A stretch of 63,447 nucleotides of DNA, filler included, from Reclinomonas americana ATCC 50394 (GCA_048213135.1; 6 parts of one record of this genome joined end to end with filler, not necessarily neighbours in it); one strand, 5' to 3'. Counted from the first letter of the whole stretch, positions 2,013 to 60,500 are shown. Numbers and translations: made by a program. Notes: generated by a model from the sequence alone, not told the origin.

Positions 2013-3233
2013 TCACTCCCCTCCCCCCCGGTCCTCGGCCTCCTGTGCCTCTGCCGCTCCAAACACCCTCTCCATCTCCTCCTCGAGCACGCGACGATCA
2101 AAAATCTCCGCGTCTCTGTTGTGCTGCACGCCATCGACGCCGACACAGAACAGCACTCGCTCCAGCTTGCCTTCGCGATCGACCTCCTCCAGGAAGTGCT
2201 TGGTGCACTCGAGAGCAATCCGCGTCGCCTCCACGATGGGGTAGCCGTAGAAACCGACGCTGAGCGCCGAGAACACCACCGAGTGCACGTCGGGCGTCTC
2301 CATGGCACGCGCAAAGCAGTTGGCGTACGTCTCCCGCAGGAGGCGCTCTTTTGGTCGGCCCTCTTCGTCCAGATACGGTGCCACGGCGTGGATTACGTAT
2401 CGGCACGGCAAGTGGCCAGCCGGCGTGATCACCGCACCGCCGTCGGCTGCATGTGTGGCAAAGTGAGCATGCAGCGCGAATCGATCACAGACGTGGGAAC
2501 AAGAGACGCACGACATCGTTCGCGGAACTCAATGTCGCCAAGAGTGTACTGCACCGCAGCGACGGAGATGAGAGGGCACAGCAATCGCGACGATCACCAC
2601 CGGCTCACACGCAAAGACGAACCACCAATTCTCCGGGCAGCTTGTGATTCTCGTCTTGCAGCACCTGTCCCGCCACCATGTGGATCATGCCATCGAAGCC
2701 GCCACCGCCCAGTCTGTGCATTCTCGCTCAGTGGCCGCGATCCGCACTTCCCCTTCTCTTCCCTTTTCTCGCTGCGCGCAACAACGCCTCATTGGCCGGA
2801 TTGACAACAGCATCGGCGTTGATCGCAAACAGATCGCCGGCAAACACGCCCACTCGCACCCGCGCGTTCCAGAGAGGCACCTCGCGCACCTCTCGCACCA
2901 CCACCACATACAGCGTCTCATCGCGTCGCACACGCTCATCGTCCTCATCGAGCGGCGCCGCCAAAATCAGACCACGCTGCATCGCTCGCTCGCTGTGATC
3001 GCGTCGCGACTGCACACACACACACACAAGTGAGAGAACAAGAGACACACACATGGAGAGCGAGCAGCGACGTGCACCAGTCGCAGCTCACAGCAGCCCG
3101 ACACCGATTGCATCAGTCGTCGACGGACGACGCCCACTTGCAGCTCCTCATCGTCGTCGTCCCACTCCACCAGTGGCGCACGCGTCAACAACGAGCCGTC
3201 CTCCTCAAAGCCCGTGACGTGCACAATGCGCAT
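2013..3233 (-). CDS. Macrodomain protein (MacroD/YmdB-like ADP-ribose hydrolase family), about 5 exons
   Basis: Spliced product has GDLFAINADAVVNPANEALLGGGGFDGMIH, GGAVITPAGHLPCRYVIHAVAP and SVVFSALSVGFYGYP motifs. Confidence 0.9.
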
Positions 3234-3472
3234 ACGTAAGTAGTTTCTCCGGCGATCGCTCGCGAGTAACACAAATTGTGAGTGTGTGAGCCGGAGAACA
3301 CGCGCAGCGACTCTCTCTCTCTCTCTCCCCTCCCCCCCCACACACACTTTTTCTGCGTGTGTGCCTCCACGCACACACGCACACGCACACACGCGCGCGC
3401 ACACAGTGAGTGTGCGGGTTTCGTTTTGTGTGTTTGTTTTCGACACTTCGGACGATGTTGCACAATCGGACG

Positions 3473-15963: not shown

Positions 15964-16011
<48 letters not shown>

Positions 16012-17815
16012 ACTCTCTCTTGCTCCCTCTCATGCGCACCACCAAGAGATTCGAGTTGGACGGGTGGAAACGCACGGCCACGGACGGCGAATGGAGCGAC
16101 GGCAGCTGCTCGGCTTGCTCAAACAACACTCGCACACAGTCGCCGTTGGAAGGGTACCACACACGGACAGCACCATCCAGCGACGCCGTGGCCACGTATT
16201 CGTCGGCCTGCGACCAGTCCATGTCTGCAGGCAGCCAGCCTCCAAAAGTTAGCCGCCACACACACACACACAACTATTCTTGAAATCATGATGAACCACC
16301 ACACCGGTAATGGCCTTGGAGTGCGCCTGGATGCTTTGGAACTTGTCGGGCGGCTCCGACAAGTTCTTCAGCGTCAGCATACCACTGGCGCTCCCACACG
16401 CCAGCAGCGAGGAGTCGGTGCGCGCAAATCNNNNNNNNNNNNNNNNNNNNNNNNNNNNNNNNNNNNNNNNNNNNNNNNNNNNNNNNNNNNNNNNNNNNNN
16501 NNNNNNNNNNNNNNNNNNNNNNNNNNNNNNNNNNNNNNNNNNNNNNNNNNNNNNNNNNNNNNNNNNNNNNNNNNNNNNNNNNNNNNNNNNNNNNNNNNNN
16601 NNNNNNNNNNNNNNNNNNNNNNNNNNNNNNNNNNNNNNNNNNNNNNNNNNNNNNNNNNNNNNNNNNNNNNNNNNNNNNNNNNNNNNNNNNNNNNNNNNNN
16701 NNNNNNNNNNNNNNNNNNNNNNNNNNNNNNNNNNNNNNNNNNNNNNNNNNNNNNNNNNNNNNNNNNNNNNNNNNNNNNNNNNNNNNNNNNNNNNNNNGAA
16801 CCGTCGTCCCTGTTTGCGATTGCTCTGTCAGGCGTTGACGATGGATCGCGCGAACCACAACCGCGACGAACCAGCATGTGGCGCATCAAAGTCATAGATC
16901 TGGAAGATACCCTGAAAGGCGTACTGCTCGGTCGGCGGCGTGTCAGCATCGCCGAGGCCGCCCTCGCTATTGCTGTTATCCGAATCGCCCTCACTGCACG
17001 CCAACAAGATCAGCATCCACCGCGCACCTCCACGTACATGTACACGCCCGCCGCACGCAACGTTCCGTCAAAGCCACCAATGGACGACACACTAAAGTCG
17101 GTGAACGAGCTGAAGCTCTGCCAACAACAACCACAACAACAATCGCCGCTGTGTGTGTCAGGCGCGGTTTTTCACGCACCACGCAGCACACGAACACCAG
17201 CAAACCTCAGTGCGCTTGCGATCATAACTGATGCGCCTTCCCGAGCCACTGGCCCCACCACCCGCGGCCGCACTCTTCAGCTTCTGTGGCGACGAGTACG
17301 ACAGCTCCGCAGTGTTCTCGTGCAGTCCTCCTCCTCCTCCACCACTGCCCACTCGCCGATGCTGCTGTGAGAGCTCTAACAGAACGCGGATGATTCAGTG
17401 TGCAGTGACAAAGAGATAGACACTGTGAGAGCATCACACGCAACTGCGAAGTCGCTCATCGCGCTTCATCTTGGCAAACGCACACACTCGTGATCGCATC
17501 TCATAGTACGCCGAGGATCGACGCAACATCTGCCAGAGAGCGAGTAAGAGGGAAGGAATCACAGAATCGTGTGAGAAGAGTGTGCACGCATGTGTGTGTG
17601 TGCGTCGCCCTCTCTCTTTCTGTGTGTATGTGTGTCCACGCAACTCCCGATCGTTCCTTCTCACGCAGCATGACGAGGCGATCGGCCGCGTACTGATTGG
17701 TGCGACCAATAGAGGAGGCCAGATCGCGTTCCCAGAAGCGCGCCTCGGGCGAGTCCACACTCCACAGAGTGCCTCCTGTGGTGGACGAGGAGGAGGAAGG
17801 AGAGGCCGCTGCCAT
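15063..17815 (-). CDS. WDR13: WD repeat protein 13 homologue (internal gap)
   Basis: EQYAFQGIFQIYD, DWSQADEYVATASLDGAVRVW, VRFHPSNSNLLV, VSGSEDGGVYVFD, LQGHAATVLDVSWSPDETLLASC|DETGVVIVWKR. Confidence 0.8.
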
Positions 17816-18020: not shown

Positions 18021-21000
18021 TCATCTGGCAGCCGCACGCAAATCTTGCACCGTGGCGCGACGTCGGCCGCTGCTGCTGCCGCCGGTGCTGCTGCCGCCAC
18101 CGCCCGCGGTTGGTGTGAGATTGAACAGCGCGTTGGCGGCCTTGTTGTCTGCGCCTGCCGAGGCTGCGCTGGCCGAGGCGGGACGATCCAGCGAGTGCGA
18201 TCGTGAGGCGGCCATGGCGGTGACGGCGGCGGCGGCGAGTGTGGCCACGGGCTGTCGACTGCGGCTCTCTCGTTCCGCGGCGTTGGCCACCACAAAGACA
18301 TTGCCGCCGCTGGCAGAGGATGGCATGTGCAACGAGGCGCGTGGTGCGCTCTGTGGCCGCACCGGTCGCGCCTGCCCCGCCACCTCGACGACGGCCGAGC
18401 CAGACGGTGGAGTGGCGCCGACAGATGATGGTGCCGGTGGTGCAGCACCCGCCGATTGAACGCGTGTGGACGTGCTCGTCGTGTTCACATTCATGCGCCG
18501 GTGCAGTGCCGCCGCCGCAGCAGTCGCCGACGCAATGCGCGTGGGAACAGCCGACTCGGACACCGACATGCGTAGCCCGCCCGCTGCCATGGCTACGGAA
18601 CTCGACTGCGAGCCGACAGAGGACGAGCCGGCGGGGGAAATGTGCGTCTCCCGTGCGTTGGAGGCCAGCAGCGATAATACCGCCGGCGGCTTGGGGTTCT
18701 GCTGACCGAGTAATATTTGCTCCTGCTGTTGTGACAGCTGCGCGGCACACAATCACAGTTAGCATCAGCGACGGACACTCATAGAAAAATGGACTCTCTC
18801 TTGCTGACCTTCGACACCACCGGTCGCCTCTGCACCGGCACAGGTCGGTTGCCGGAGGCACCGGCGCTGGCCGGTCGGACAGCCGTCTGCACATCAAAGC
18901 GCGGGGGCGGAATAAATTGGCGCACCTCCACCGAGCGCGGCGCTCGCTCGGCGTCCTCTTCGCTGATCCCAGACTGCCGACTCGACCCGTGCACCTGATC
19001 CTGTTAGCGCGCACGCGCAAAACCCTTGTGAGTCACGACACGCTTAATGCAAAACACACATAAACACTCGTGACTCACCGAGGCAGGCGTGCCACCCGAG
19101 GCCGCGGCACCGACAATGCGTTGCTGATGCTGCAGACCGCTGGCGACGCGAGGCGTTTGACCCGCCGACAAAACAGGACGCACCATTGCATGCGCGCCGT
19201 CGGAATCGTTGCCCGCGGTCGGTCGACTTGTCAGCGGGCGGGAGATTGGGGGCGACAACCTACACACACGGGGGGAGTCAGACGCACAAAGAAGTCGCGT
19301 CATTCCACGTTGTAGGAACGCAACACTCGTGCGTCTCCCGCCGCCGCCGCTGCCGCCGCTGCTGCTACTGCCGCCTCGGCAATCACCGGAATGGAGCCAG
19401 CACTGCGGCTGCGGATCGGCTGACTCGGGCGCGAGGCGCGGGACTGGCGCTGATTGTCGGGCTGCGCTGCCGGTGACTGTCCAACACTGACCAAGCGAAC
19501 CTGTGACGAGGGAGTTGAGAAACACCTTCCCCCAGACACAGTAAAAACCGTCGAGGTGGACAAACCGAGTCCTCGGTCGAGGCAACCGTGGACGAGGAGA
19601 ACGTCTCGGTGGCGTGTCGTGACATGTCGTTCGGGAGGTGCGGTGCCAGTTCTGGTGGTATCAACGAGCACGCATCGCGCATGGCTACCAGAAGAGTCAA
19701 ACGCCGACGAAAATGAGAAAGAGGCCGGCGAGAAAAAGGAAAAAACACACACACACCTGGTCTCTTATCCGGCACCTTCTCCAGCAGTGTACCGAGGAAA
19801 GCACGGAATCGAGATGAGTAGTGATTGGATAGTGGCGCTGGTGATTTGTGTACAATGTTGCTGGCCAGATCGAAAACGTTGGTGCCCTACGCGAGTGACC
19901 CACGTCAGTTGCATGGCGAGAGAGAAATTCCATCTTCTCCCGCTAAACGCACCTCAAATGGCGGGTGCAATGCTGCCAGCTGGTACAGCAGGCAGCCGTA
20001 GCCCCACACATCGACCTTGTAGTCGTACGGTTTCTTGCGTACTTGCTCCGGAGCAAAGAAGGCCGGTGTGCCGGCTTGCGTGTGCAAAAATTCGTCCTCT
20101 CCCACAATACGAGACACGCCAAGGTCGCCAATCTGCCCATATCATCGTTGGATCGCACGCACACGTACAGAGGCACAGACATGTATGTTCCGCAAGTAGA
20201 CGCACCTTGACTCGCTTGTCGGCCGTGAGAAACACATTAAGACACTTGAGATCGCGATGGATAATGTGCTGGTCGTGCAAGTAGACCAGCGCCGACGCCA
20301 GCTCGCTGGCCAGCTTCCACAGTAATCTCTCGGAAAAATACGCGTGCTTCTTCTTGTGTCGTTTGTACAGGCGGTGCAAGTCGCCGCGCTCCGCGTACTG
20401 AGCAATCGCGACGCAAAATAAAACAAGCAGTCAGCGCGCATCCGGAGAAAGTAAATACGAGTGCACGTTTCCCTCACCTCCATGATAATGTACAGTGAGT
20501 CGTTGTCCATAAACGACGAGTAGTAGCGCACAATGTTCGGGTGATCGATGTCGCGCAGCAACAGAGCCTGCAGCGAGTCGGGGAATGAGAAAACAATGAG
20601 CAGCAGCCAGCGGACCTACAGCGACGAAACTTCCGAGAGGGCCTTCTGACGCCGAGTCGGCTTCATATTGCGAAGCACGATCTGCTTGGCCACGTAAATG
20701 CGCTTGTCGCGGCGTGAGCGGACCTTGTACACGGTCCCGTAGGTACCGCGCCCAATCTCACTCAGCATGTCGAAGTCGCCTGCACGAGAAACCATCAGCT
20801 TGTGTTTCTCCCCGATCTTCCCACAACCATCGACCCTCACCGAGACATGTGCCAACGTCTGTCGCCAACACCGGCCTTCGCTCCTGAAAGCGCGACGATG
20901 GCATCCCTGGCGCTGCTCCTGCTGCCGCCGCCACTGCTGACGATGCCGACGAGGGAACCACTCCGGATGGCGAAGCCGTCGACCGCGGTGGGTAGCTGGT

Positions 21001-21960: not shown

Positions 21961-23188
21961 ATGCGCGCGCTCATCGTGTGCATCGTGCTTGTTGCGGCCA
22001 TGTCGCTCTCTGTCTGCGGCATTAAGCAGAGCAAGATCCACTATGTGCGCGTGTCTCCTTTCAGTGTGTGACTGTGTGTGTGATCTCACACTCACTCTCA
22101 CTTGTAGGTGGATTCGCTCGAGGCGCCGGGAAAAGGCTGGCGGAATTTTCTTGTGCGAGGTGCGTGTGTCTGCGTGTGTGTGTGTGTGTGCATGTGACTC
22201 ATGACTGTGAGAGCAGGCGACCAGCCGCGGAATGACGCTGTTCGTCTAATTCATTGCTCACGTTGCACGCCACACACTCGCTCACTGCTGTGCATGCGCA
22301 GGTGGACTTTGCCGATTGTGGCGGTAGAGTGCCTTATGCCGAGTTTCGTCTCTCTCTCTTTGTCTCGTGGCTTGCTGGCTTCTCATGCTGCGCTGTGCAG
22401 TTGCTTTGGGTGGGATGAGTTGAGGAACTTTACGGCGATTCAAGTGGCGAAGGAGTCGCCGTACAAGCTGCCTGAGGACTTTTTGTTGATCGATGTCAGT
22501 CTCATTGGCGACGAGGATCCGGTCGAGCCGATTGACTCGGCGATTGAGAAGGCGTTTTTTGATCAATACCCCGAGCGCGGGCAGTATGTGCACTGGGAGA
22601 CCAAGGGTGAAACGAGTTGCGCGAATCGAACCACACAGGCAGTGCGCCCCCTTCCTTTTGTTGCTGCCTGCTGATCGAGCACGCGCAGTCGACAACTGCC
22701 CGACGAGCAAGTTCACAGAGACGCAGATTGCGCAGCGCTCCGCCAATGTGTCGTGGATGCTCGACGATTTGGTGTCGCGAACAGCATCGCTGCGCACGTT
22801 GTTGCAGAGTGCAGCGGCCAAACCGCTGCTCATCTACGTGCACTGCGAGCACGGCATGGATCGCACCGGTGAAATGGCGGGCGCTTACGTGTTGCGCTAC
22901 CTGCAGCAGAGCTGGAGTGCGGTCTGCACCTACAATGATCATGGTGTGTCGCCGGAGAACACTGTCGTCCTTTCTTTATGGTTGCATCTTCTCACACTCC
23001 GCACTTCACGCAGTTGGCGTTCGACCCATGCAGCCGGCAAACAAGTGCGCCATGCAATGGTTTGCAACACACACTCACGCGCTGTTGCCTTGTCGTCGTG
23101 CTAAGTAAGCATGCTGCACAGGTTCTGCTACCACCTCGCCGATTCGTCACCATCGGTGGCACAACAGCTTCAGTGCGGGATGTCGTGA
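21961..23188 (+). CDS. Secreted PTP/DSP-superfamily phosphatase (apparent 1-nt frameshift in exon 2)
   Basis: Signal peptide MRALIVCIVLVAAMSLSVCG; NFLVRG|DQP; active site IYVHCEHGMDRTG; AATAAA shortly after the stop. Confidence 0.8.
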
Positions 23189-32900: not shown

Positions 32901-33320
32901 NNNNNNNNNNNNNNNNNNNNNNNNNNNNNNNNNNNNNNNNNNNNNNNNNNNNNNNNNNNNNNNNNNNNNNNNNNNNNNNNNNNNNNNNNNNNNNNNNNNN
33001 NNNNNNNNNNNNNNNNNNNNNNNNNNNNNNNNNNNNNNNNNNNNNNNNNNNNNNNNNNNNNNNNNNNNNNNNNNNNNNNNNNNNNNNNNNNNNNNNNNNN
33101 NNNNNNNNNNNNNNNNNNNNNNNNNNNNNNNNNNNNNNNNNNNNNNNNNNNNNNNNNNNNNNNNNNNNNNNGGGAGAGAGGGGGGCGATTGCCCGCGCGC
33201 GAACACACACACACACACACAAAGACACGCAACTTGGAGCATGGCGGCGCCAGCAGTGTCGACGGGCGACGATGCCAGTACACCAGCCATAGACTGGCGG
33301 AATTGATCCTCAGCGGCCAT
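29983..33320 (-). CDS. PCK1: Phosphoenolpyruvate carboxykinase (ATP), 9 exons
   Basis: [81 protein letters not shown]; includes a 22-nt exon near 32349-32370. Confidence 0.97.
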
Positions 33321-34325: not shown

Positions 34326-34886
34326 TCAGTCATCTTCATCTTCATACTCATCCTCCTCCTCCTCCACCTCAGCATCCTTGTCAATCAGCAACCTCGCTGC
34401 AAGCACACCACCACCAGTGAGCCATCCACCCTGCTGCAAACACCACGACAACACACACTCACATGCATAGGCGCCAGGTACCACATCCGCTGCGCGCACA
34501 CACACACACGCACACAGAGTGAGACGCACACGCCAAGCAGCCGCTCCACTCTATGCGCGCAACTCTTCTTGAACCATCGCGCAATCCAACTGTCGCGCGG
34601 GTTGATGATACACAAGAACCTGCCACAAGCACCATCAGCAACAGACACACACTCACTCTCTCTCTCTCTTTCACACGCACCCTTCAAACAAGGTCGTGGT
34701 CTCTTGCCTGCCATCTGACGCCGGCCACGCACAGTTCTGGCACCCATCGGCCAGGAACTGCGACATGGTCTTGATCAGTCGACAGGTGAGACACGCGCGC
34801 AGCTGTCGCTGACTCGAGGGCATGGTCAGCGCCAGGAGACCAGCAGCTGCTGCTCCGTGCCCATGCGCCCCATCATCGAGATCCAT
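34326..34886 (-). CDS. SPT4: Transcription elongation factor SPT4, 4 exons, acidic tail
   Basis: LRACLTCRLIKT..QF..DGCQNC, TTTLFEG|FLCIINPRDSWIARW, VPGAYA. Confidence 0.93.
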
Positions 34887-39897: not shown

Positions 39898-40724
39898 GCA
39901 TGCGCACGATTCGTGAGCACGACGAGAGTGAATGACGCTGTGCGACAGACGCAACCGTGAGCAGAATGTTATCGGGCTTGATATCGCGGTGCAGGAGGCG
40001 CAGTGGAGGCCTATGGATGTACGCCAAGCCACGCAGCACCTGCTTGGCCACAGCCGCCAACACAGGCTCAGGAACGCACTTGTTCGGGCACACCTGCGTC
40101 AAAGAGTCAGCAAGAGCATGAAAGAGCACGCGCTGTTGCTGCCTCGTGCTCAGACAAAGACCTCCATGAGTCGGCCGAGTGTGCCCACATTCATCCACTC
40201 CAGCACAAAGCCCACGTGATGCGCTCGCAGCACCCACCCTGCGCACGACATGACATTCGGATGCGCAGCTTGACTGCACGCCGACAATGCGTCGTGCTCT
40301 CGATCCACAGGCTCCAGATCGCTCTCACCAGGCATCTCCACTACATCACACTATGTGAAGCACACATGTGTGAGTGTGTGTGTGTGTTGACAACGAGAGA
40401 GAAAGAGTGATCACACCTGCACAAACTATATATGCGCAATCAGTCAGTGATGTCACGAGGGAAGACGAGGAGGAACACTTTTTGAGCGCGAACCTTGAGC
40501 ACGACTAGCTTCTGTGTGGCTCTCTCGCGGGCGAGAAAGACCTCTGAGAAGCGGCCGGTGCCGACGCGACGCAAAATGTCAAACGACTCTTCCTGTTGTG
40601 TGTGTCACAGTGTGACAGTGAGTGAGTGAGACAGAGGGAGGAGAGGAGGAGGGAGAGAGAGGGAAGAGAGTGGAACTTTGCGCTCAACCAGCGCCGGTGG
40701 TGGAGGCGCGATGGGTGAGTCCAT
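39898..40724 (-). CDS. MAP2K/STE7-like kinase, N-terminal half (subdomains I-VIb)
   Basis: FDILRRVGTGRFSEVFLA, VVLK, HPNVMSC, FVLEWMNVGTL, VPEPVLAAVAKQVLRGLAYIH, LLHRDIKPDNILL. Confidence 0.85.
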
Positions 40725-41454: not shown

Positions 41455-43209
41455 GCAGGTGGTGCCGGCTGTGGGAGTGCAGCCACTGGCGACTCCGGAG
41501 CAGCACCCGCCTGTCGATGTCTTCAACTCGCCCGTGGAGACACCGCCGGCGTCGCCGTCGGGTGAGCCGCGCTTTGTTGGTCGTCACCGAGTGTGCTTGA
41601 TTTAGGCACTCATGATCGTGAGGCAGATCTCGTCTGCAACGTGCGACTCTCCGATTTCAACTCGTCGCGCCTCAACGCCAAGAAGGTGCAGTACACGTTC
41701 ACCGGCACCGAGGTCTACATGTCGGTGAGATGCGCGTGGGAGCGAGAATGTTGACCCGAGCACGCAATAGCTGATTGTGATTTTCGCGGGTGGGAATTGC
41801 ACGTGCAGCCGGAGCGAGTTATCGGCTCTGGTCACTCCACGCCCTCCGATATCTGGAGCTTTGGTCTCACGCTGATGACGGCGGCGACGGGAGCCAATCC
41901 CATTTTGGCCGGCATGGACTGTTGCGCAGNNNNNNNNNNNNNNNNNNNNNNNNNNNNNNNNNNNNNNNNNNNNNNNNNNNNNNNNNNNNNNNNNNNNNNN
42001 NNNNNNNNNNNNNNNNNNNNNNNNNNNNNNNNNNNNNNNNNNNNNNNNNNNNNNNNNNNNNNNNNNNNNNNNNNNNNNNNNNNNNNNNNNNNNNNNNNNN
42101 NNNNNNNNNNNNNNNNNNNNNNNNNNNNNNNNNNNNNNNNNNNNNNNNNNNNNNNNNNNNNNNNNNNNNNNNNNNNNNNNNNNNNNNNNNNNNNNNNNNN
42201 NNNNNNNNNNNNNNNNNNNNNNNNNNNNNNNNNNNNNNNNNNNNNNNNNNNNNNNNNNNNNNNNNNNNNNNNNNNNNNNNNNNNNNNNNNNNNNNNNNNN
42301 NNNNNNNNNNNNNNNNNNNNNNNNNNNNNNNNNNNNNNNNNNNNNNNNNNNNNNNNNNNNNNNNNNNNNNNNNNNNNNNNNNNNNNNNNNNNNNNNNNNN
42401 NNNNNNNNNNNNNNNNNNNNNNNNNNNNNNNNNNNNNNNNNNNNNNNNNNNNNNNNNNNNNNNNNNNNNNNNNNNNNNNNNNNNNNNNNNNNNNNNNNNN
42501 NNNNNNNNNNNNNNNNNNNNNNNNNNNNNNNNNNNTGCGCGTTTGTCAACTCGCGCAGCCTCGCTTTTGCTGATGTGTGCACACAGCGCCGGATCATTTC
42601 GGCCTCATGAATCGCATCTGTACGTACCCGCTTCCTGAGCTGCCTAGCGGACACTCGGAGGCATTCCGCGAGTTTGTCAGCAGCTGGTGCGACACAGAAG
42701 TCACAATCCTTTTTTTGTGCTCCCGACGCGCTCATCCGTTGCTTTCGTGTTTCCAGTTTGAAGCGCGACCCAGAGCAGCGACCCACCGCCCAGCACCTGC
42801 TCACGTCGGCGTTTATCACCAGCGCACCGAGTGCCTCGTGGCTGGCCAAGTTGAGCACGGTGTTGACTTTCTCTCCTTCATCCCATCGCTTTCCTAATCC
42901 TTGTCTTTGGCGCACAGCTGGGTGGTTGAGCGTGGCCTCTACACACCCGACACTGATGCACCACCGGTGGTAGCGGCCTCGTTCCCCTTCACCAATCCCA
43001 CCGCGAATTTGTCGTCGTCATCGTCGTCCTCGTCCTCATCGTCGTCTTCCATGCCCTCGCCTGCGATCGTGCCGAGCAAGACGCACATGACTGCACCCTC
43101 TGCAACGGCAACGGCTGCTGCGGCAGCAGCAGCAGTAGCGGCGGCGGCGGCGGCAGCTTCCGCGACAGCAGGTGACACCAACGAGCGGCCGCCACCAACG
43201 GATCCATGA
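41455..43209 (+). CDS. MAP2K/STE7-like kinase, C-terminal half (subdomains VII-XI)
   Basis: VRLSDFNSSR, TFTGTEVYMS|PERV, SDIWSFGLTL, SEAFREFVSSC|LKRDPEQRPTAQHLL. Confidence 0.85.
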
Positions 43210-43326: not shown

Positions 43327-44894
43327 TCACTGCCTCGCACCACCACGCCCACCTCCCCGCCACGGTCGCCGACCACCGCGGCCGCGATTACCACCACCAC
43401 CTCCACCACCACCTCCTCCTCCTCCCCGCCCTCGACCCTGACCACCACCACCACCACCACGATGCCCGTGCCATCCACCACGCGGCCGGTGTCGCGACGG
43501 ACCGCGCTCGATCGGAACACGGTCGGTCAGCATGCCTCGCTGGCGGAACAGCAGCGCAGACTGATCGGCCACCACCTGCAGCACCTGCATGCAGAACTCA
43601 AAATACTTGGCGACGGCCGGCGGCACTCGCGGGTCGTGCGTGCGCACACTGCACAATTCGTGCGCCTCGCGCAGGGCGCCCAACTCGGTCGTGCACTGCA
43701 GCACCGGCGCCGCGACGATGCGGAGTCGCCGATCGACGTCCAGGTCACTCAAGAAGCGCAGGCTGTGCGCAATCGCCAGAATGCCCTGCTCACGCACTCC
43801 CGTGGACGACAAGCGGAGCTCGCGAATCGGCGCACGTGAGTCCGCAATGCTCTCAGCGCCAGCGTCGCTGATCTTGTTGACTGGCGCACAAAAAATATAA
43901 GATGAGCGCTCATCACAGTGTGCACGCTCGCTGCGATGGACGCAACATGACAGCGACAGGTACCGCAGCTGCGCCAGGTTGCTCAGCAGCGCCAGACCCG
44001 CGTCAGAGATACGGTTCTCTGCACGGGTGACACATATGGTCGGCGACTGCTGCTTGGCAACGGTGAAGGCGAAGAGAAAAAACCAAAACGCACCGCTCGC
44101 CTGGATTCGCCGCAGCTGCGTGCAGTGCGTGCACAGGGCCAGCATACCTGCATTGCCGACGCCCGTCTCACTCACGTTGATGCTGGTGAGGTTGGGGCAC
44201 GCGCGGGCTATCGCCTCCACTCCATCATCGCCGATCGAGTTGTCTATATGCAAGAGGGTGAGACCGCGTCAGAAAGGAAAGCACACTATGCGCTCATCGC
44301 AACTCCACATGTCCAGCTCGCGCAGCCGCGGTCGCAGCACGGGTCCACGATCGTCGGCAAACAGTTGTCGCATGCCATCGCCAGTGAGCATGTTCACTGT
44401 GAACGATGATCGATCAGCAGCTGAGAGGGCGAAATGGATGCGAACAGAGCACACACCTGACAAGCGCAAGCTCTCCAGCGATGGCATGCACAGTGCCAGC
44501 GACTGCGCCGAGGCATCCGTCAGCTCGTTGCCTGCCACAGAGCGAGAAGAGGGTTCAAAAAAAGCTCCTTTTTTTGGTGCGCGACGACGTTGTGTGTGTG
44601 CGAACCGGTCAAATCCAACGATCGCAGCTCGTCACCGCAACGCTGCAGTGCCACTCCCACAATATGCCGCAGCTTGGCATCGCCCAGTCGATACAGGCGA
44701 AAATCCACCTGAGGCACATAATTAGCCTCGTTTTTTTTGGTGACATTATGTGTGTGGGAGAGCACCTTGCCACCGAGCGTCGCCACCATGTACTGCACGT
44801 ACGCCAGTGTGCGCTCATTCCGCTCCTCCTCCACCTCCTCCTCACCCACCACCTCCACCTCCTCCTCCACCCTTCGCTCCTCGATTGTTGTCAT
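43327..44894 (-). CDS. Leucine-rich repeat protein (RNI/AMN1-like) with Gly/Arg-rich (RGG) tail
   Basis: LRSLDLT|GNELTD, LESLRLS|VNMLT, NSIGDDGVEAIARACPNLTSINVS, NRISDAGL, NKISDAGA. Confidence 0.85.
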
Positions 44895-47932: not shown

Positions 47933-50900
47933 AAGTAATGCATGACTACTGCCTCTGCACACAAACCACTACTCTCTTGGCAAAGTCGGCCAGCTTGTCG
48001 AAATAGGCGTACGGGAGAACGTTGAGGATGTCGTGGGCCGACGCTTCGGTGAGCGACTGCGCTCGGATCCGCACGGTAACTGCGCGATGTGAGCATATGA
48101 GATGAAGTGAAGTAGCAGGCCACACACACACACAGCGACAAGTCACTCAACATGGCGGTGGTCCATCGGCCTCGGGCTGCGGTGTGAACAGCTCCACACC
48201 CACAGGTGGCGAATGCATCACGGCCATGTCTGCAGCCTGCATGCGCACAAAGCGACAGCATCAACACTCGTGTCCTGGGCAGGGCAAGCGAGGCACACAT
48301 ACGCAACAGTCAACATCCTGACGTCCACAATCACGAGATCAAACGACGGCTTGTGCTGCTTGATGCGTGGAATCTGTGTGCACGCAGAAGCGTGCAGTGA
48401 GCTCCCTGGTGTGTCGAGAAGAGAGCAGCCTTTGCTCCCGCTTCTCTCTCACATACACACACACACGCACCACTGCAACATCGATACGGCAGGCGGCGGT
48501 GACTGATGGTGGCATGTTTCCGACTTGCTGTCCGGCATAGTGAGCCACCAGACCAGCCATACTCAGCAGCATTTTTTTGTCGACATGACTGGGCAGCGAC
48601 GGGCCCTCATCATCCGGATCCAGCACATGGCCACCGATGTTCATGGGTGTGCCCAGCAGCAACAGATGCTCGTGCCGCTGTGTCACGACTCGAACACGAT
48701 TCTCCAGCACGTAGCACGTGAATGTCTGCGTCGCAACAAGCGGTAAGCTCCCGATCGCCTCCACACCGAGGATACACGCATGCAGACCTTGTCCACCGAC
48801 ACGTCGGGGTCGTACGCCGTCAGTGTCAATATCACTGGCACAATAGTATTTTTCTGCGCACAAAGAAAGGGTCAAATACGCAACACAACCAGGCAGCTTG
48901 CAGAACCGAAGAGAGGCAACACCGCACCACTTCGCTCTCAGTTGAGTTCTGCTGCGACACGCTTCCACTGCCGGCCGACGAGGACGACGCGCGGCCGCCC
49001 TTGCGCTTCTCCACCTTCTGCTTCTTCTTGCCCGCCGCAGCTGCGGTGTTGCCTGCGGCCTTTCCCTTTCCACGAGGACCCGCTCGCTCCTTCTTCCGGC
49101 GCTCACGGTCGGTCAAAAAGTACGACTCGTCAAACTCGTCGCCATCTTCACCACCGGCCCCACTCGCACCGCCCGCGCCAGCGCCATCGTCGTCGTCATC
49201 GTCGTCCTCCTCTCCAGTGTCGTCCTTGTCCACATCGCTGCCACTCTCGTCGCGCTTACCACCCGCCGGCGGCGTGGCTGCGTTGACCAGCGCAACAACA
49301 TCGTCGGCCGACATTTGCTGAGCGGCCTGCGTGCTCACCCGCTCGACCACAGCCTCCAGGTGTGCCAAGGTCGCCGGCGAGTGCGCAAGAGCGCCAAGAA
49401 TCTGATCTCCATCGCGCAACGCAGCCGCTCGATGCGCCAACATGGTTGCCACTCGCACCCTCTCCTCTGCCTCGTCGCTCTCTGTCGACCACGTAATCTC
49501 CACGACTTTCAAGAGCGGCTCGTCGTACGCAAACGCGCAGCCATCGGCGATGCTGCAGCAGCAATTGATAAGAGACTGACTGCGAACGAGAGCACACAGN
49601 NNNNNNNNNNNNNNNNNNNNNNNNNNNNNNNNNNNNNNNNNNNNNNNNNNNNNNNNNNNNNNNNNNNNNNNNNNNNNNNNNNNNNNNNNNNNNNNNNNNN
49701 NNNNNNNNNNNNNNNNNNNNNNNNNNNNNNNNNNNNNNNNNNNNNNNNNNNNNNNNNNNNNNNNNNNNNNNNNNNNNNNNNNNNNNNNNNNNNNNNNNNN
49801 NNNNNNNNNNNNNNNNNNNNNNNNNNNNNNNNNNNNNNNNNNNNNNNNNNNNNNNNNNNNNNNNNNNNNNNNNNNNNNNNNNNNNNNNNNNNNNNNNNNN
49901 NNNNNNNNNNNNNNNNNNNNNNNNNNNNNNNNNNNNNNNNNNNNNNNNNNNNNNNNNNNNNNNNNNNNNNNNNNNNNNNNNNNNNNNNNNNNNNNNNNNN
50001 NNNNNNNNNNNNNNNNNNNNNNNNNNNNNNNNNNNNNNNNNNNNNNNNNNNNNNNNNNNNNNNNNNNNNNNNNNNNNNNNNNNNNNNNNNNNNNNNNNNN
50101 NNNNNNNNNNNNNNNNNNNNNNNNNNNNNNNNNNNNNNNNNNNNNNNNNNNNNNNNNNNNNNNNNNNNNNNNNNNNNNNNNNNNNNNNNNNNNNNNNNNN
50201 AGTTGCAGTCGACTCGGCATTGCTGTCGCACGAGGAGCGCGACAAGTGGATCGACGTGAAGTCGTGCAGTGTGGAGCTCAAGCTCCGACAGGCGCAGTTG
50301 CGTGGACGTGAAGAGACGCGCGTGTGTGTGTGCGTCGTGGCTGATGTGCACATCTCTCCACGTGTCTGCCCTTCCGCGCGCGCAGAGCACTGCTGCAGTA
50401 TGCGCGCAAGGTGCATGAGCTGCGTGACGGGAGTGGAGTCGGCAAGCGGTATCCGCGTGCGAGCTCAGAGAACAACACGCTGAAGCTGGTGTGCATTGAG
50501 TGATTGCGCTGCTGTGGTGTCATTGTCGGTTTTTTTTTGCGCTCAACAGCAGCGCGCAGTTGGCCGAGTCGCTCGGGAAGCAGGTGCGATCGATTGACGC
50601 CGATGAGCATGGCGTTGTGGTGCATCTCGACGGGCACAGGTACCTCTCCTNNNNNNNNNNNNNNNNNNNNNNNNNNNNNNNNNNNNNNNNNNNNNNNNNN
50701 NNNNNNNNNNNNNNNNNNNNNNNNNNNNNNNNNNNNNNNNNNNNNNNNNNNNNNNNNNNNNNNNNNNNNNNNNNNNNNNNNNNNNNNNNNNNNNNNNNNN
50801 NNNNNNNNNNNNNNNNNNNNNNNNNNNNNNNNNNNNNNNNNNNNNNNNNNNNNNNNNNNNNNNNNNNNNNNNNNNNNNNNNNNNNNNNNNNNNNNNNNNN

Positions 50901-52998: not shown

Positions 52999-55900
52999 AT
53001 GAAGTCGCTCTACGGGGTTGTCGTGTGACAACGCTCATGCACCCAGCCCCGATCCAATGTGCATGCGCGGTCTCTCTTCGCACTGCCGCCACTTTCGAGC
53101 ACCACCGATCTTTGTGTAACCGAGCCGTCTACAGTAAAACTGTCCGTTTCCTCCCCTCTCTCATGTTTCCAGCGCTGGTGCCTCCCTCTCTTCCGCCACC
53201 AGGCGGTGGCGGTGGAGGTGGAGTGACAGCAGGCGAGTCGCAGTTGTCTCCTTCACGTCTCCCTCAGTCCTCACATTCATCCATCACCGCAGTGCACTCG
53301 CACTCACACTCGACCACCCGAGTGCGCACGGCCGACGACGTTGCTGCGGCAGTGATGCACGGCAGCGATGAGCACGTCGGTGACCTGTCTCCTGGTCTGT
53401 ACGGCTGGGACGATCCGGTGTCGGCCAACTCGTCGCCGTCGCGGAGTCGGGCGTCGCAACCAGCCAGCGCACGGACAACCTCTCCTGCGCCTGGCTCCGT
53501 GCGGTCATCGTCACCCAGCAAACCAGTGAGTCGTGGCTCATCCAGTGCCGCAGCGGCGGCCACCGGAGGGCCGGCATCGTCCGCTGATTTCGCCGCCATG
53601 TGGATCTCACATGCGGTCAATGCACCGCCTGTCGGCAGTCGACAATCGCACCACAGCGGCACTGTTTCGCCGTCGACAGCGGCGCACTCGGCGTCTCCGC
53701 AGAGGCAGCAACAGGGCACTGGCACCTCCTCGCCACTGCTACTGCTGGAGCCGGCGGAGAGGGGCAGGACTCTTGTTTCACAGTCGTTCGACTCGTCGAT
53801 CCTGCCGGTGGCGACAGCCGGCGCCACTCGGCGTTCACCGACCGTCATGTCCATGCGTCGATCGCCACCGCCTCCAGCGTCCTTTCTCAGCGGTACCGCG
53901 GGTCCGACTGCGACGGCTGCGTTGCAGCAACAGCAGCAGCAAGCGGGAGCTTCCAAGCGGCGCCAGTTATCGTCACATCCACAACAACAGACCGAGTTGC
54001 GAGACGCTGCAGAGCAACGTGCGTCGCCGTTGCTCGGTCGCGACTCGCACGACGTGATGCGCTCGTTGAACAAGAAGCGACCAGTACCGGCACTGTCGTC
54101 GTCGTCGTCGCCGTCGTTGGTGCCCGCAGGTTGGTCGTCCTCTGTTTTGCACACCCATGTTTATGCATTGCTGATCGCTGTCGCACAGGATCGCCTGACG
54201 CCACCAGAGACGCCAGCACGAAACCTCCCACGCGAGTGATTGACAAGCTGTTGCAACACGAGACCGACAACATCTCGCGGCTGGCTGGCGGCGATCGTGA
54301 GACCAACCGCCGAGCCAAATCCCGATCGCCGTCGCCGACTCCCCTCGCCCCGCTGGCACACACCGCCGACCTCGGGGCCACTACTGCACCACAGCAGACG
54401 GCGACCGGTGCGCTCACCGGTGCCAGTCGCATGGAGTCCATCAAGAGCAGCGTCATCTCCAAGACACCCATGCCGCCACCCAGCACCGTCATCAGTCGGA
54501 GACCAAGTGTGAGCATTGCGTCGCTGATAACTGGCGGCTCCGCGTTGCCGGACCATTCAGCTTCGCCGCCGTCGTCGCCGCCGCTGCACCACAGCCGTTC
54601 TCGGGGCGAGTCAAGTCCCACCGGCGACAGTCCCACCGGCCTTCGTCACAAATCACGATCGTTGCGTCGCGCTCATGGAACACACACGATAGTTGTCGCA
54701 CTGAGCATGCTCGCATGCGCGCAGACCACAAATTGTGCGAGTGCCCGGTTTCGATACATTCAGCTTCCGAAACCGCTTGCTGCGCAGCGAGTTTCCACAG
54801 CACCTGGAGCACGTGCTCATCGAGGGCGAGATCGTCGCTGAACAGCAACCAAGGTTTGTGAGTGGGACCGGCGCGCGATATCAGTAATACTGAAAAATTA
54901 ACATTTGCGCAGCAACTCGCCTGCCTCTCGTCACAGTCGACTGGAAGCCGTGCGGGAAGTACTTCGTGAGTACGATTGTGTTTTTGTAGGTAGGCATCCT
55001 TTTCACGAATGCGTTTGTATTGATCTCGGTTTCGTCAGGGATTTTCATGGATCGATTCGCTTCGTACGAACCTGTATTCATGCAAGTCATGAACGTGTAC
55101 GAATCGTACGTAGACGAATGCATCGAGTTGCGTTCGCTGGGGTGCTCACCACCCTTGAGCCCTCTTTCTTGCCAACACATTTGCCTTCTTGTGTTGTCGC
55201 ACCAACAGAAAGCAGCGTGAGCATGGCAGCTCAGACGAGTCCGATCAGACCGTCGAGTCGTTGCCGCTTTCATCGCCGAACGGGCGTGCCACTATTGACG
55301 TGAGCAACAGCGGAGCCCATGCACAAAAGGCCGTTGTGTCGCGTACAAAGTCGTCCACAGCACTACCGCGTGCGCAGCCGCCGCCAGTGGACGAGGAAAT
55401 TGTGTCGGCGTTGCAGCAGCAGATCGAGGAACTGGAGCAGCGGAGTTGCGCCGATAGAAAAAGTCTCTCTTGCAAACTCTCTTCTCATCCTCGCATNNNN
55501 NNNNNNNNNNNNNNNNNNNNNNNNNNNNNNNNNNNNNNNNNNNNNNACCCCCCGGCAGGGACTGCACTGAACATTGAGGTGGCCGAGAAGCAACGCCAAC
55601 TCGAGGCCCTAGAGCAAGAAGTCAGCCAGACGCGACGACAGGCCGCCAGCGAATTGATGAAAACCGACGAGGGCCGTGTGGAGCAGCTGTCAGCAGAAGT
55701 CACATTTTGGCAGGCCAAGGCCCGTGCTGTGGAGCGAGACGTCACCGAGCGCGCCGTGGCCAAGATTCGCGAGGCCCGAGACGAGTTTCGCGACATGTAT
55801 CAACAAAAGGTACACCGATTTCGATATTGCGAACTTGTCGCACGTGTGCCAACGCGCATATTTCACTGTCGCAGGTGGAGAAGACTCGGCGACTGGAGCG

Positions 55901-56892
55901 AGCGGTCGAGGTGTTGCGCGCACGCAACTTGCTCCTTGTACAGGAGCTGCAACGCGCGTCGGACGAGCTGCTTCAGTTCCGCGAGACAAGTCGGGGCAAG
56001 GCGCCCGACTGGCGTGGCCTCGCTGTGAAACCGGCCATGCCGCACAACTTCCTCACCTTGGCCTACATGCACGAAGCACAGGCAGCCATCGAGCTGTACG
56101 AGGCAATGCCGGAGCCGCCTGGTGCGCACGAACACTTTGCAATTGCGGTGACCGGCGACCATGAAGCCGCGACCGCAGCTGCTGGTTCTGCCGATGAGCA
56201 ACCGCCACACACGCCACCGCCACCGCCGCCATTGACAGTAACGGGAGCCGCAGCTGCGGAAGAGAGTACGCAACCGCCAGCAACCGATCCACCGCTTCCC
56301 GTGGAAGACTGGAGCCTCGAGAGCAAGTTCGATCACAAGTCGGGTGCTCTCGACCACGCGCTCGGCGACGGGTTTGTAAGCGACGGTATTCTGCTGGAGA
56401 CGGCGAATGCGCTCGAGTTGCGTTCACCACCATTTGTGTGTGTGTGTGTGTGTGTGCTGTGCTCCCCGTACTGAGGCGTTCCCGCAGAATGGCCAAGTCG
56501 GTGGCCATGCATCCGTTGGAGGACGTCAAGAGTCCGTCGCTGACCGAGCTGCGCAAGAGCCGACGCTACGTCGCTCGCGAGGAGACGGAGAATGTCGACG
56601 CTGCACTGATCACGGGACAGAGCGCCGAACTGGGCATGCTGCAGGATGCCATGGAGCGTGAGGAGCACATGCAAGAGCGGTTGTTGGCAGACCGTCAAGC
56701 TCGCCGCTCCTNNNNNNNNNNNNNNNNNNNNCGCCCGTCGTCGTGCACTCCATCGAGGCTGAGGCCAGTCGGCACCAACGACGCGCTTCACGTCTCCTCG
56801 AGCTCGACGACATGCTGCACCTCACACAGCAGCCTGCAGCCACATCGCCTCACTCGCACCGCTCACAGCTCTCTCACTCTGCCGCTGAATGA
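52999..56892 (+). CDS. Coiled-coil protein with TSNAXIP1 N-terminal-like domain after a long Ser/Pro-rich region
   Basis: RLEAVREVL|GIFMDRFASYEPVFMQVMNVYESYV resembles the TSNAXIP1_N consensus; heptad-rich downstream exons; start uncertain. Confidence 0.6.
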
Positions 56893-57262: not shown

Positions 57263-57514
57263 CCGTCGCAAGCGCGCGCGTGCGCGGGAGATTGTATCGC
57301 TGCGTATCGTCCTTCACGCGTCCCGCGCGCGCGCACACACACGCAAACGAAGGAACGACGAGAAGAGAGAGAGGAGAGGCACACGTGCGCACGGTGTACG
57401 CACGAGTCGCAAAANNNNNNNNNNNNNNNNNNNNNNNNNNNNNNNNNNNNNNNNNNNNTTAATTAATTAANNNNNNNNNNNNNNNNNNNNNNNNNNNNNN
57501 NNNNNNNNNNNNNN

Positions 57515-60500
57515 CGCCAGTGGCAGGGCCTGGGACGATCACGTCCGCGAAGACAGCAACCAGCTCGGCACGAGCCCGTGTCCGCAGGAATGCAACAGCA
57601 GCCGCTCCACTGGCATGTGTCCTCCCCGACGCATCCGCAGCGGTCGAGCGGCCCCGGGAGTCACCGCTGTCATTGTCGTCGGCATTGTCGTCGCCAATGT
57701 CGGTCGATTCACCCGGTGGGGGTGCGCCGTCACCGTCGTCACCGTCCACCGCAGCATCGGCGTCCGGGCGAGCGCGAAGGAGACACACAGCGGCGGCGGC
57801 CAAGGCGGCGGCGGAAGCCAGTGCTGCGATGGCGAAAGCCGTGGTGAATGCGGGAGTTGCGCCTGCGCACCCGCAAGCCAAGCGCGGAAAGCGCGTTAGT
57901 TCTGCTGCTGCTGCTGCTGCTTCTGCTACCACCGCTACGACGCGCAGCAAGCGAGGAGACTNNNNNNNNNNNNNNNNNNNNNNNNNNNNNNNNNNNNNNN
58001 NNNNNNNNNNNNNNNNNNNNNNNNNNNNNNNNNNNNNNNNNNNNNNNNNNNNNNNNNNNNNNNNNNNNNNNNNNNNNNNNNNNNNNNNNNNNNNNNNNNN
58101 NNNNNNNNNNNNNNNNNNNNNNNNNNNNNNNNNNNNNNNNNNNNNNNNNNNNNNNNNNNNNNNNNNNNNNNNNNNNNNNNNNNNNNNNNNNNNNNNNNNN
58201 NNNNNNNNNNNNNNNNNNNNNNNNNNNNNNNNNNNNNNNNNNNNNNNNNNNNNNNNNNNNNNNNNNNNNNNNNNNNNNNNNNNNNNNNNNNNNNNNNNNN
58301 NNNNNNNNNNNNNNNNNNNNNNNNNNNNNNNNNNNNNNNNNNNNNNNNNNNNNNNNNNNNNNNNNNNNNNNNNNNNNNNNNNNNNNNNNNNNNNNNNNNN
58401 NNNNNNNNNNNNNNNNNNNNNNNNNNNNNNNNNNNNNNNNNNNNNNNNNNNNNNNNNNNNNNNNNNNNNNNNNNNNNNNNNNNNNNNNNNNNNNNNNNNN
58501 NNNNNNNNNNNNNNNNNNNNNNNNNNNNNNNNNNNNNNNNNNNNNNNNNNNNNNNNNNNNNNNNNNNNNNNNNNNNNNNNNNNNNNNNNNNNNNNNNNNN
58601 NNNNNNNNNNNNNNNNNNNNNNNCGGCGGCAGTGCCGAAGGGAGTGGCCACACCGACCATCAACCTTCCACCACCGGTGCCGTTGCCTATCGTACAACCC
58701 GCCAGTTCGGGTCCTCGATCGCCCGCCGGTTCCGCCGGCAGTGGTACGATGGTGCAACTGGTGTCGACGGGGCTGGAGGGCGACTTTGGGCTCCGGTTGT
58801 CGCCGCCGTCTGCACCGACAGGCGCTCCAGCTGGCTTGAGTGGTCGGTCATCTGCTTCTCTGTCGCCATCGGTGTCTTCGCCGCCGGGGCATCAGTCCAT
58901 GGTACTTGCGTCTCCTGTCCCGCTGCCGCCACAGCTCGCGTCGTTGACGCCTGTGGGTGAGCGTGTTCACGTGACGGCGACTGCGCTGCCGACGACGGTC
59001 ATGCGCCCGCCGCCAGTTCTACCTGGACCGTCGTACATTGCTCATCAACCGAATTCGACTCTGGCGCCCACCTCTCGTCGTATGACGGCTGATAGTGGCT
59101 ACCCGCTTCCAGTTCTCGGTGCACAGTTTAATATGGCGGTGATTGGTGGTGCTGGCGTAGGAGGCTCCATGGGACACCCGTTCGCGGCTGTGGCAGGTGG
59201 CGGCCTGCCGTCCCTTGGAGAGGGATTTCATGTTCCTCCGCCATCATCGACGCCAATGTACTCCTTGGTGCCATCTACCACCACGCAGACGACGATGGCG
59301 CCAGCTTCTGGCCCGCAGGCCGGCTGGTTGACGGGGAGCCGGTTGCAGTGGCAGTCGCCGACCGCCGTGAACTTGCCACAGCCGGAGACTAATGCGTTTT
59401 CCTGGCGTTGCGTGATGGATGGCAAAAGAGACGAACGAGTGTGATACACGAGATGGACTCACTTGTGCATGCTGTGTATAGCAGCGAATCCGATGCGCTT
59501 GCCGTTTCCTCCATCCGCCGGTCCAGCGCCGCCGACATCGGATATTTATCGGCAGGGTCTGAGTTGCGTGAGAGGCGGGTGAATGTTCTGCCGCTTATGG
59601 TTGCATTTCTGCTGACTCCTATTTTTTTTTTTGCTCTCTGCCAGGTCCGTCTCCAGACGACGAGAAGCGATCCGAGGAGTGCGCACAGCCGCACGACAGC
59701 CATGAGCATGGTCCCGATCGGCATATCGGTGTGTTTGTGGTGCACGTTTTCTTGTTGATTGGTTGTATGAGACTGAATGCTGGCGTAGATATGGATGCCG
59801 ATGACCTTGTAGCGGCGCTGTACGACGCGTATGTGCCGTCGGCCGACGACGTGCACCCACCAACTCAAGGATCCGGGCCGTCGTCTGACGAGTTCGTCGC
59901 ACCGCTGTCGCCAATGCCGGAGGTGGACGAGCTCTCTTCACCTCCATCTCCGTCGTTGCCACCGTCCGCACCTGTAGCGGACGCGCGACTCCAGATGCAG
60001 GAGCAATTGGTGACGTTGTCCGGCGGCGGTGGCGACGTGGAGATGAGCATGCCAGTCGTCGCCGTTGGCGGTGAGGGACACTCGGCGTCGGCATCGTCGA
60101 GAGCAACACCTGTCGACGACGCTGTCGGCGCCAAACCACGCGGAGGCAAGCATGGTAAGTGTGCTGGCGGCTGGCGAACTCGCAGGCTTCATCTCACCGA
60201 CTCTTGTTCGCGCAGCAGGTTCCGTTGCACCACATTTCACGTTGCCGTCGGCCGACCGAGTTCTGGAAGGTGCGACTTGCTGTCCGTCTGTATTCTCCAC
60301 CCCATTACTCAGTGGCGATGATGATGATGATGCGTAGAATACACGAGCCATGGAGGGGCTCCGCTGCCGGACAGTGCTGGTACGCGTGCGATTGACCACA
60401 GTGTGGAAGAAGAGGTAGAAGAAGTGTCAGTGGTGCTCATGTGTCTTGCAGAATGGGATGCCGATGCCCGCAAGGCAAAGTCCTCGGCTTCACGACGTGC

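Follow-up and report, generated by a model that had tools for sequence, protein, structure and literature searches.

A second, discrete class of GT-AG donors, possibly read one base out of register, in intron-dense DNA of Reclinomonas americana

The window analysed here, by which we mean the whole 63,447-base stretch of DNA from Reclinomonas americana ATCC 50394 (GCA_048213135.1), is eukaryotic, GC-rich (approximately 59% G+C over its non-N sequence) and intron-dense, and our subject is the 5' splice sites, or donors, of its introns, which are mostly 58-115 nucleotides (nt) long. N accounts for 8,305 of its bases, and one and the same spacer, N44-TTAATTAATTAA-N44, with stops in all six frames, occurs five times, at 8615-8714, 29684-29783, 47833-47932, 57415-57514 and 62130-62229; together with the other N runs these spacers indicate a draft assembly of at least six joined pieces, so that genes cannot be traced across the spacers. 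Pfam searches of stop-free open reading frames, with short gaps between them, recognized PEPCK_ATP, Macro, ECH, Pkinase, Spt4, H_lectin, TIG and LRR_6 domains as well as WD40 and Ank pieces, while Rfam at gathering thresholds returned zero families over the whole window and hence no small nuclear RNA (snRNA) gene within it. The original prediction had named 25 donors in this DNA that carry one extra T, such that the usual G at +5 appears at +6, and had proposed that a shifted register is a mainstream mode of splicing here, possibly through variant U1 or U6 snRNAs or altered proofreading of the 5' splice site. Below we denote donors with G at +5 as G5, and those with T at +3 and G at +6 but without G at +5 as T3G6.

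Introns were called with a single-strand Viterbi gene finder of our own, trained iteratively on the window, which scores codon usage, acceptors by way of a matrix, and the content of introns beyond their first 8 nt, and charges each intron a fixed cost. In its agnostic form the finder knows nothing of donors beyond GT or GC, and acceptors end in AG; it nevertheless reproduced all six homology-defined introns of the PEPCK gene and four introns of the hydratase gene on which 9-10 of 10 homologues agree, including a 7-nt micro-exon. Among the 80 donors that it chose, 37 were G5, 19 were T3G6, six had another base at +3 together with G at +6, and 18 belonged to neither kind, as compared with 611, 70, 369 and 859, respectively, of the 1909 unused sense-strand GTs in the same genes. 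T3G6 therefore makes up 24% of predicted donors versus 3.7% of unused GTs (odds ratio 8.2, Fisher 4e-10) and is the most enriched class of all. When the finder was restricted to particular donor kinds the same distinction appeared in the whole-window Viterbi score, which was 1093 with G+5 donors only and 1271 when T3G6 was added (a gain of about 177), as compared with 1094, 1123 and 1122 when the added donors had A, C or G at +3 with G at +6, and 1387 when every GT was allowed. Adding T3G6 thus recovers most of the coding score lost under the G+5-only model, and A, C or G at +3 contributes little. In the run with both donor classes, 23 of 75 introns were T3G6, and the donors named in the original prediction were matched exactly in 12 of 25 cases by the agnostic run and in 14 of 25 by the two-class run.

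The motif itself is present at all 25 of the named coordinates, each of which bears GTT(G/T)(C/A)G; their heptamers are 17 GTTGCGT, 3 GTTGCGC, 1 GTTGCGA, 3 GTTTCGT, 2 GTTGAGC and 1 GTTGAGT, the naming of which partly overlaps, and their final exonic base is A in 12, T in 7, C in 4 and G in 2, just as had been counted. Over both strands of the window GTTGCGT occurs 30 times, as compared with 15.2 +/- 3.6 over 100 dinucleotide shuffles, whose counts all stayed below 30; for GTGCGT, the ordinary form, 94 occurrences compare with an expected 78 +/- 8. Moreover, the counts of GT[A/C/G/T]GCGT are 3, 10, 15 and 30 in that order, such that the enrichment at +3 is confined to T. The concern that these donors might be no more frequent than the base composition predicts is answered by this excess over the shuffles, together with the enrichment of T3G6 in donors over unused GTs. 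GTTGCG also occurs 12 times within predicted sense exons.

Some of the junctions could be placed by protein homology or by repeat structure. We used a protein-to-DNA spliced aligner of our own whose knowledge of splicing is likewise limited to GT/GC and AG, and in the PEPCK gene (31973-29986, minus strand) it recovered six introns of 62-72 nt with all 6 homologues, with the donors GTTTGT, GTGCGT, GTTGCGT (31578), GTGTGT, GTCTGT and GTTTGT in order. Across 31578 the product is gapless, similar to its homologues, and barring this donor loses 15-18 score units and adds an extra residue. In the NEK-like kinase, alignment to NEK2 (2w5a_A) assigns the exon upstream of 20630 to residues 7-55 and residues 3-30 of the downstream exon to 58-87, with contiguous numbering. 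A leucine-rich repeat (LRR) gene (43287-44894, minus strand) offers an internal comparison, as five introns interrupt it at the identical repeat point LxLxx/NxIxDxG (here and below, a slash outside brackets marks the intron or the cut), all in phase 1, and of their donors three have G at +5 (GTTCGC, GTGTGT and GTGCGT) and two are GTTGCG (44303 and 43946). One of the ordinary introns, 44019-44093, was missed by the finder because it is in frame and stop-free, and came to light through the repeat pattern alone; methods based on coding potential will miss such introns.

For two further genes the evidence is of a different kind. In the macro-domain gene the exon downstream of 2782 aligns to MACROD1 residues 88-111; for the upstream exon PDB searches gave nothing usable and Pfam coordinates were too coarse, and for that reason the preference for the donor at 2782 over that at 2785 depends on what we take to be the spacing of the macro motif, N-x-x-L-L-GGGG. 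In SPT4, exons 2-3 presumably agree with the family. The only SPT4 relative found (P0121, a 98-residue gene call) matches exon 1 (34683-34823, minus strand) and continues with unrelated sequence from the end of exon 1, which suggests that an intron at the same position may have been overlooked in that relative. Of the donors said to be fixed by conserved protein, those of PEPCK (31578) and NEK (20630) are borne out, and those of SPT4 (34563) and the macro domain (2782) fit their frames with a family comparison that we assume to hold. The further statement that five genes together contain 26 introns, 7 of them of the shifted type, agrees with our own counts, which are 1/6 for PEPCK, 3-4/6-8 for the lectin gene, 1/4 for the macro-domain gene, 1/3 for SPT4 (by eye) and 0-1/5 for the hydratase. 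Taken together these results confirm that a second donor class exists, enriched and discrete, as a class and not for each individual site, and it comprises roughly 20-30% of the predicted introns in the window.

Table 1. Introns and donors discussed in the text; "claimed" marks sites of the original prediction for which the finders gave no matching intron, and "unlisted" marks sites that it had not named.
Feature	Donor	Position	Strand	Length (nt)	Phase	Basis
PEPCK intron 3	gat/GTTGCGT	31517..31578	-	62	2	6/6 homologues; agnostic finder
NEK-like kinase intron	gaa/GTTTCGT	20568..20630	-	63	0	NEK2 alignment; agnostic finder
LRR gene intron	gga/GTTGCGA	44244..44303	-	60	1	repeat position; agnostic finder
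LRR gene intron	cat/GTTGCGT	43881..43946	-	66	1	repeat position; agnostic finder
LRR gene, paralogous comparison intron (ordinary donor)	gcg/GTGCGT	44019..44093	-	75	1	by eye; splicing restores LRRIQAS-E-NRISDAG
Macro-domain gene intron	gtt/GTTGCGC	2714..2782	-	69	2	two-class model; agnostic finder took GT 3 nt upstream
SPT4 intron 2	aga/GTTGCGC	34490..34563	-	74	1	frames by eye only; exon 1 matches SPT4 chains
Intron	gga/GTTGCGT	17530..17644	-	115	0	agnostic and two-class finders
Phosphatase-like gene intron	cga/GTTTCGT	22343..22400	+	58		agnostic and two-class finders
Phosphatase-like gene intron	cga/GTTGCGC	22616..22688	+	73		agnostic and two-class finders
H-lectin/TIG gene intron	cca/GTTTCGT	25045..25148	+	104		agnostic and two-class finders
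H-lectin/TIG gene intron	tct/GTTGCGT	27413..27489	+	77		agnostic and two-class finders
H-lectin/TIG gene intron	ctc/GTTGCGT	28249..28327	+	79		agnostic and two-class finders
Second LRR gene intron	gcg/GTTGCGT	36016..36083	+			two-class model chose donor
Second LRR gene intron	aga/GTTGAGC	36171..36237	+	67		agnostic and two-class finders
Intron	cat/GTTGAGT	48080..48151	-	72		agnostic and two-class finders
Unlisted intron	cga/GTTGCGT	56417..56487	+	71		agnostic and two-class finders
Unlisted intron	gat/GTTGCGG	63236..63307	-	72		agnostic and two-class finders; weak gene model, score 23
Unlisted intron	gca/GTTTCGT	63108..63173	-	66		agnostic and two-class finders; weak gene model
Further unlisted candidates		55445, 55127				two-class run
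Claimed donor, just after kinase motif HRDIKPDNILLT	acg/GTTGCGT	39949..39955	-			intron enters N gap, acceptor hidden
Claimed donor	caa/GTTGCGT	33227..33233	-			intron enters N gap
Claimed donor	gca/GTTGCGT	17438..17444	-			both finders prefer GTGTGA at 17439, 5 nt downstream
Claimed donor	act/GTTGCGT	48301..48307	-			finders prefer 48322, 15 nt upstream
Claimed donor	aat/GTTGCGT	35787..35793	+			finders read through; read-through peptide looks non-coding
Claimed donor	agc/GTTGCGT	37079..37085	+			outside all gene models
Claimed donor	caa/GTTGAGC	42850..42856	+			outside all gene models
Claimed donor	atc/GTTGCGT	54661..54667	+			not recovered by finders
Claimed donor	ggc/GTTGCGT	59407..59413	+			by eye fits open frame over 75-nt intron; outside all models
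Claimed donor	tga/GTTGCGT	59563..59569	+			by eye fits open frame; read-through meets stop

A comparison of the two classes was made on the donors picked by both finder runs, 33 of them G5 and 19 T3G6. Ordinary donors have A at -2 in 17/33 and G at -1 in 26/33 (A in none), followed after the GT by G at +3 (19/33), by T, C or A at +4 (13, 10 and 8 of 33), by the G at +5 that defines them (33/33), by T at +6 (17/33) and by no clear preference at +7. In T3G6 donors the final exonic base is A in 10, T in 6, C in 2 and G in 1 of 19, and the intron continues with the defining T at +3 (19/19), G at +4 (12/19), C at +5 (16/19), the defining G at +6 (19/19) and T at +7 (11/19). The loss of G at -1 (1/19 versus 26/33 in ordinary donors) is significant at p = 2e-7, and the gain of A at the same position is significant both against ordinary donors (10/19 versus 0/33, 6e-6) and against unused T3G6 sites (13/70, 0.006), as the original prediction of a bias towards A at -1 had it, and in keeping with the A at -2 of ordinary donors. 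Phase 0 is also rarer among T3G6 introns (4/19 versus 18/33, 0.02). When the T3G6 donors are slid by one base, their preferences match those of the ordinary class position by position (A at -1 with A at -2, G at +1 with G at -1, T at +3 with T at +2, G at +4 with G at +3, G at +6 with G at +5 and T at +7 with T at +6), and the two consensus 8-mers, A-G/G-T-G-N-G-T and A/G-T-T-G-C-G-T, differ at one position.

Apart from the donor, the two kinds of intron look alike. The median intron length is 71 nt for both, 15/19 T3G6 and 18/32 G5 introns have CTSAY at 8-50 nt upstream of their 3' end as compared with 67/428 exon windows, CAG acceptors are common to both, and in both we find the features of U2-type GT-AG introns, namely junctions that restore frame or homology together with a branch motif and an acceptor. 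In addition, the two classes are found within the same genes, in all six joined pieces and at paralogous positions of one LRR gene. On balance we lean towards the view that one U2-type machinery splices out T3G6 and ordinary introns alike.

The explanation that we somewhat favour as a whole is that there are two discrete kinds of GT-AG donor, and that in the second the recognition signal is displaced by +1 with respect to the cut. The ordinary kind, (A)G/GT(G/T)NGT, would be defined by G at +5 and mostly G at -1; the second, (A/T)/GTTGCGT and less often GTTTCGT or GTTGAG, by T at +3, G at +6 and T at +7, with hardly ever a G at -1. The second motif can be described as the ordinary 8-mer A-G-G-T-G-N-G-T in which the third base has become T, and with this change the single available GU would lie one base upstream, such that the downstream G-N-G-T and the exon-side signals would be read +1-shifted from the cut. 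U1, and later U6, would then read the second class in this shifted register. At the catalytic stage one U, that at +2 or that at +3, would be looped out on any reading of the data; from the established structure of the spliceosome, a single base is expected to loop out where the GU meets the G/U partner of the U6 ACAGA.

Pairing to U1 was computed with RNAduplex, bulges allowed, using as the U1 5' end the human 11-mer printed in PMC4856993, from which the host's own U1 may differ. Ordinary donors pair with this canonical U1 at -5.9 kcal/mol, as compared with -3.4 for unused G5 sites (2e-8). When the +1 register is forced, the T3G6 consensus forms 7/11 pairs with two interrupting mismatches, as compared with 5 in the canonical register, again for a human U1 that may not be that of the host. 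The pair count and the displaced flanking preferences thus agree with a +1 shifted register, whereas no energetic advantage over unused sites was found. Of the original proposal, the existence, abundance and discreteness of the class and the one-base displacement of its exon-side preferences stand; what does not follow from our calculations is that canonical U1 pairs with these donors any better than with unused GTs. Of 24 U1 11-mers that each carry one substituted base, only that with C8 changed to A is predicted to favour T3G6 donors clearly (-3.4 versus -1.9 for unused GTs), and in silico the same variant is predicted to weaken pairing with ordinary donors (-2.7 kcal/mol).

Several observations weigh against the shifted register or limit how far it can be taken. 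The 19 T3G6 donors pair with canonical U1 at -1.8 kcal/mol and thereby gain nothing over 70 unused T3G6 sites (-1.5; p = 0.37) or over unused GTs as a whole (-2.7), and the optimal fold adopts the shifted register (C4 with +6, A7 with +3) at only about 5 of 32 sites. The depletion of G at -1 is non-significant against unused T3G6 sites (1/19 versus 10/70, p = 0.44). C at +5 is found in 16/19 T3G6 donors as compared with 10/33 at the corresponding +4 of ordinary donors (4e-4), which makes the motif narrower than a plain one-base shift predicts; T at +5 is found in 1/19 of them versus 32/70 unused sites, although T is the commonest base at +4 of ordinary donors, a scarcity that may arise in part because G at +4 followed by T at +5 would make a competing GT 3 nt downstream. 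Real donors also exist outside both classes, such as aag/GTTCTTG at 14522 (minus strand), which has homology support in 10/10 alignments, and such donors indicate that the donor consensus is loose overall. Nine of the 25 claimed sites are unconfirmed and two more run into N gaps; the junctions were all deduced from homologous proteins, from the structure of repeats or from coding potential; the sample is a single 63-kb window that includes 8.3 kb of N; and the finder is a self-written script trained on that same window, with a class definition that comes from the original prediction.

The poor pairing with canonical U1 and the narrow preference at +5 make a dedicated or variant reader a live rival, if in our view an unlikely one. 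Here a U1 paralogue with an altered 5' end (at position 8, for instance), a changed U6 or a protein factor would recognize GUUGCGU directly and so define a second, parallel mode that serves approximately a quarter of the introns. The tight heptamer (G at +4 in 12/19, C at +5 in 16/19, T at +7 in 11/19), canonical U1 pairing that is no better than at unused GTs, and the preference of the C8-to-A variant for T3G6 (-3.4 versus -1.9) at the expense of ordinary donors (-2.7) would all fit such a reader, but branch motif, acceptors and intron length are equal between the classes, the alternation of the two classes at paralogous positions in one gene argues for common downstream machinery, and ordinary U1, if shifted in register, would be expected to produce the exon-side offset. 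Less probable again is a bulged or asymmetric-loop register, in which U1 would pair canonically from -2 to +2, one U (at +2 or +3) would be bulged or looped, and pairing would resume at G+6 and U+7. In accord with this the extra base is always a T beside the T of GT, where a bulge can migrate, and PMC4856993 describes human sites with a +2/+3 bulge or a +3/+4 asymmetric loop. A bulge predicts G at -1, however, because that base stays opposite C9 of U1, and here -1 is G in 1/19 donors versus 26/33 ordinary ones and A in 10/19, nor did RNAduplex, with bulges permitted, favour the bulged register. It is this exon-side offset, which fits a +1 shift while bulge and loop registers keep G at -1 favoured, that leads us to prefer the shifted register over them.

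That the class is an artefact, whether of mis-called donors, of TG/CG-rich composition, of homopolymer errors turning GT into GTT or of a mixture of two organisms, appears very improbable. The nine unconfirmed sites, the 12 GTTGCG within predicted sense exons and a draft assembly joined from pieces do speak for it, but against this stand the 8-fold enrichment over unused GTs of the same genes and the exact junctions in PEPCK, NEK and LRR genes. The PEPCK exons, moreover, are gapless at the junction with no frameshift over a coding sequence of about 1.6 kb, so that indel errors must be infrequent, and a difference between classes at the exonic base -1 cannot stem from an error inside the intron; homopolymer sequencing error is for these reasons unlikely, and a genome mixture was rejected since each joined piece contains both classes, as do individual genes. 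Equally improbable is a family of introners, that is of transposon-derived introns whose element end would be GTTGCGT. Four claimed introns do begin with a shared GTTGCGTTT(C/T)T; on the other hand, when 50 intron bodies were compared all against all with their first 10 and last 5 nt removed, the longest shared stretch was a 17-nt TG repeat, and the matching pairs (15 T3G6-T3G6, 48 mixed and 27 G5-G5) do not cluster the T3G6 introns. With intron bodies that are unrelated apart from this repeat, we regard an introner family as ruled out. U12-type introns were rejected as well, given donors of the form GTT(G/T)(C/A)G and a branch motif held in common with ordinary introns.

Of the 25 claimed sites 14 were recovered, and two (33233 and 39955) run into N gaps. 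The H-lectin/TIG gene has the top coding score in the window, 392, and its large exon had no homologue among proteins of 712-2030 residues. For the intron at 36016 in the second LRR gene the acceptor, CCAG at +68, was set by eye from the LRR period and restores LSLS-D-NPLGDSG, while the model took an AG at +59. In the kinase gene a donor gag/GTCTTTG at approximately 40160 (minus strand), read by eye, is likely and lies outside both classes. The finder merged the WD40-repeat gene and the hydratase gene in one model (13748-16380, minus strand), the true boundary of which probably lies near 15050. The enoyl-CoA hydratase gene contains a 7-nt micro-exon, GTCCACG (14449-14455, minus strand), between introns of 67 nt and 69 nt; it encodes the V-H-G of the conserved KVHGFCVAGGTD, and homologues support the first of these introns in 10/10 and the second in 9/10 cases. 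TG/CA and CT/GA microsatellites are frequent within introns and beside gaps (for example in the introns at 33233, 48151 and 17644, minus strand). The closest PEPCK relative is 75% identical; among genome contigs we found no relative with genomic DNA for an intron comparison, and among metagenome contigs PEPCK matches were at most 69% identical, with a continuous 231-residue match that has no intron to compare.

Returning to the shifted register, the reading of human 5' splice sites by U1 with a +1 shift was reportedly described by Roca and Krainer in 2009 (cited as reference 10 in PMC4856993), and human bulge registers are said to have followed from Roca et al. in 2012. Similar to the human +1 shifted sites, the donors described here are GT-AG sites without G at +5 in which the run of pairing would lie one base downstream of the usual position and the cut is kept at the GU, and in that register A is favoured at -1 because the last exonic base lies opposite U10 of U1. 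However, the human sites are rare individuals, while here they would account for approximately a quarter of donors. The paper of Tan et al. 2016 (PMC4856993), which covers shifted, bulge and asymmetric-loop registers in human sites, counts 3119 of 201,541 human sites (1.5%) for all validated noncanonical registers and gives predicted numbers of 68 sites for the +2/+3 bulge, 51 for +3 and 349 for the +3/+4 loop. An example given in the same paper, ACA/GUCAAGUAUA, pairs continuously from +3, in contrast to the C at +5 and poor predicted stability with canonical U1 of the present donors. The human bulge and loop registers resemble the present donors in that one extra nucleotide, usually U, separates the GU from the G paired to C4 of U1, but they keep the exon side canonical, whereas here the G at -1 is lost (1/19). 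A 2026 paper on tunicates (PMC13326754) raises a shifted register as a possibility.

In presenting a second discrete donor consensus beside the major one in the same genes, the window also recalls the U12-type introns, a resemblance that would gain in meaning if a dedicated snRNA exists. The U12-type donor is /RTATCCTT, with the branch site TCCTTAAC, and is read by U11 instead of U1. Introns of that type, however, make up well under 1% of introns, as compared with GTTGCGT donors, a shared CTSAY branch motif and a proportion of approximately 25% here. A literature search of limited coverage returned no report, for any organism, of GUUGCG-type donors or of a shifted register that serves as a main mode.

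Among species examined to date the distance from the cut to the G at +5 is nearly fixed, and here that distance appears to be one base longer in approximately one donor in four. The genome may therefore serve as a natural experiment on how U1, U6 and U5 divide the labour of finding and fixing the cut, on how far the catalytic core tolerates a bulged base, and on whether the 5' ends of snRNAs can co-evolve with populations of splice sites. Gene finders that employ a single donor matrix will mis-call approximately a quarter of this genome's introns. Should a dedicated reader prove to be the correct explanation, the spliceosomal recognition of donors, so far of the U1/U2-type and the U11/U12-type, would gain a third kind.

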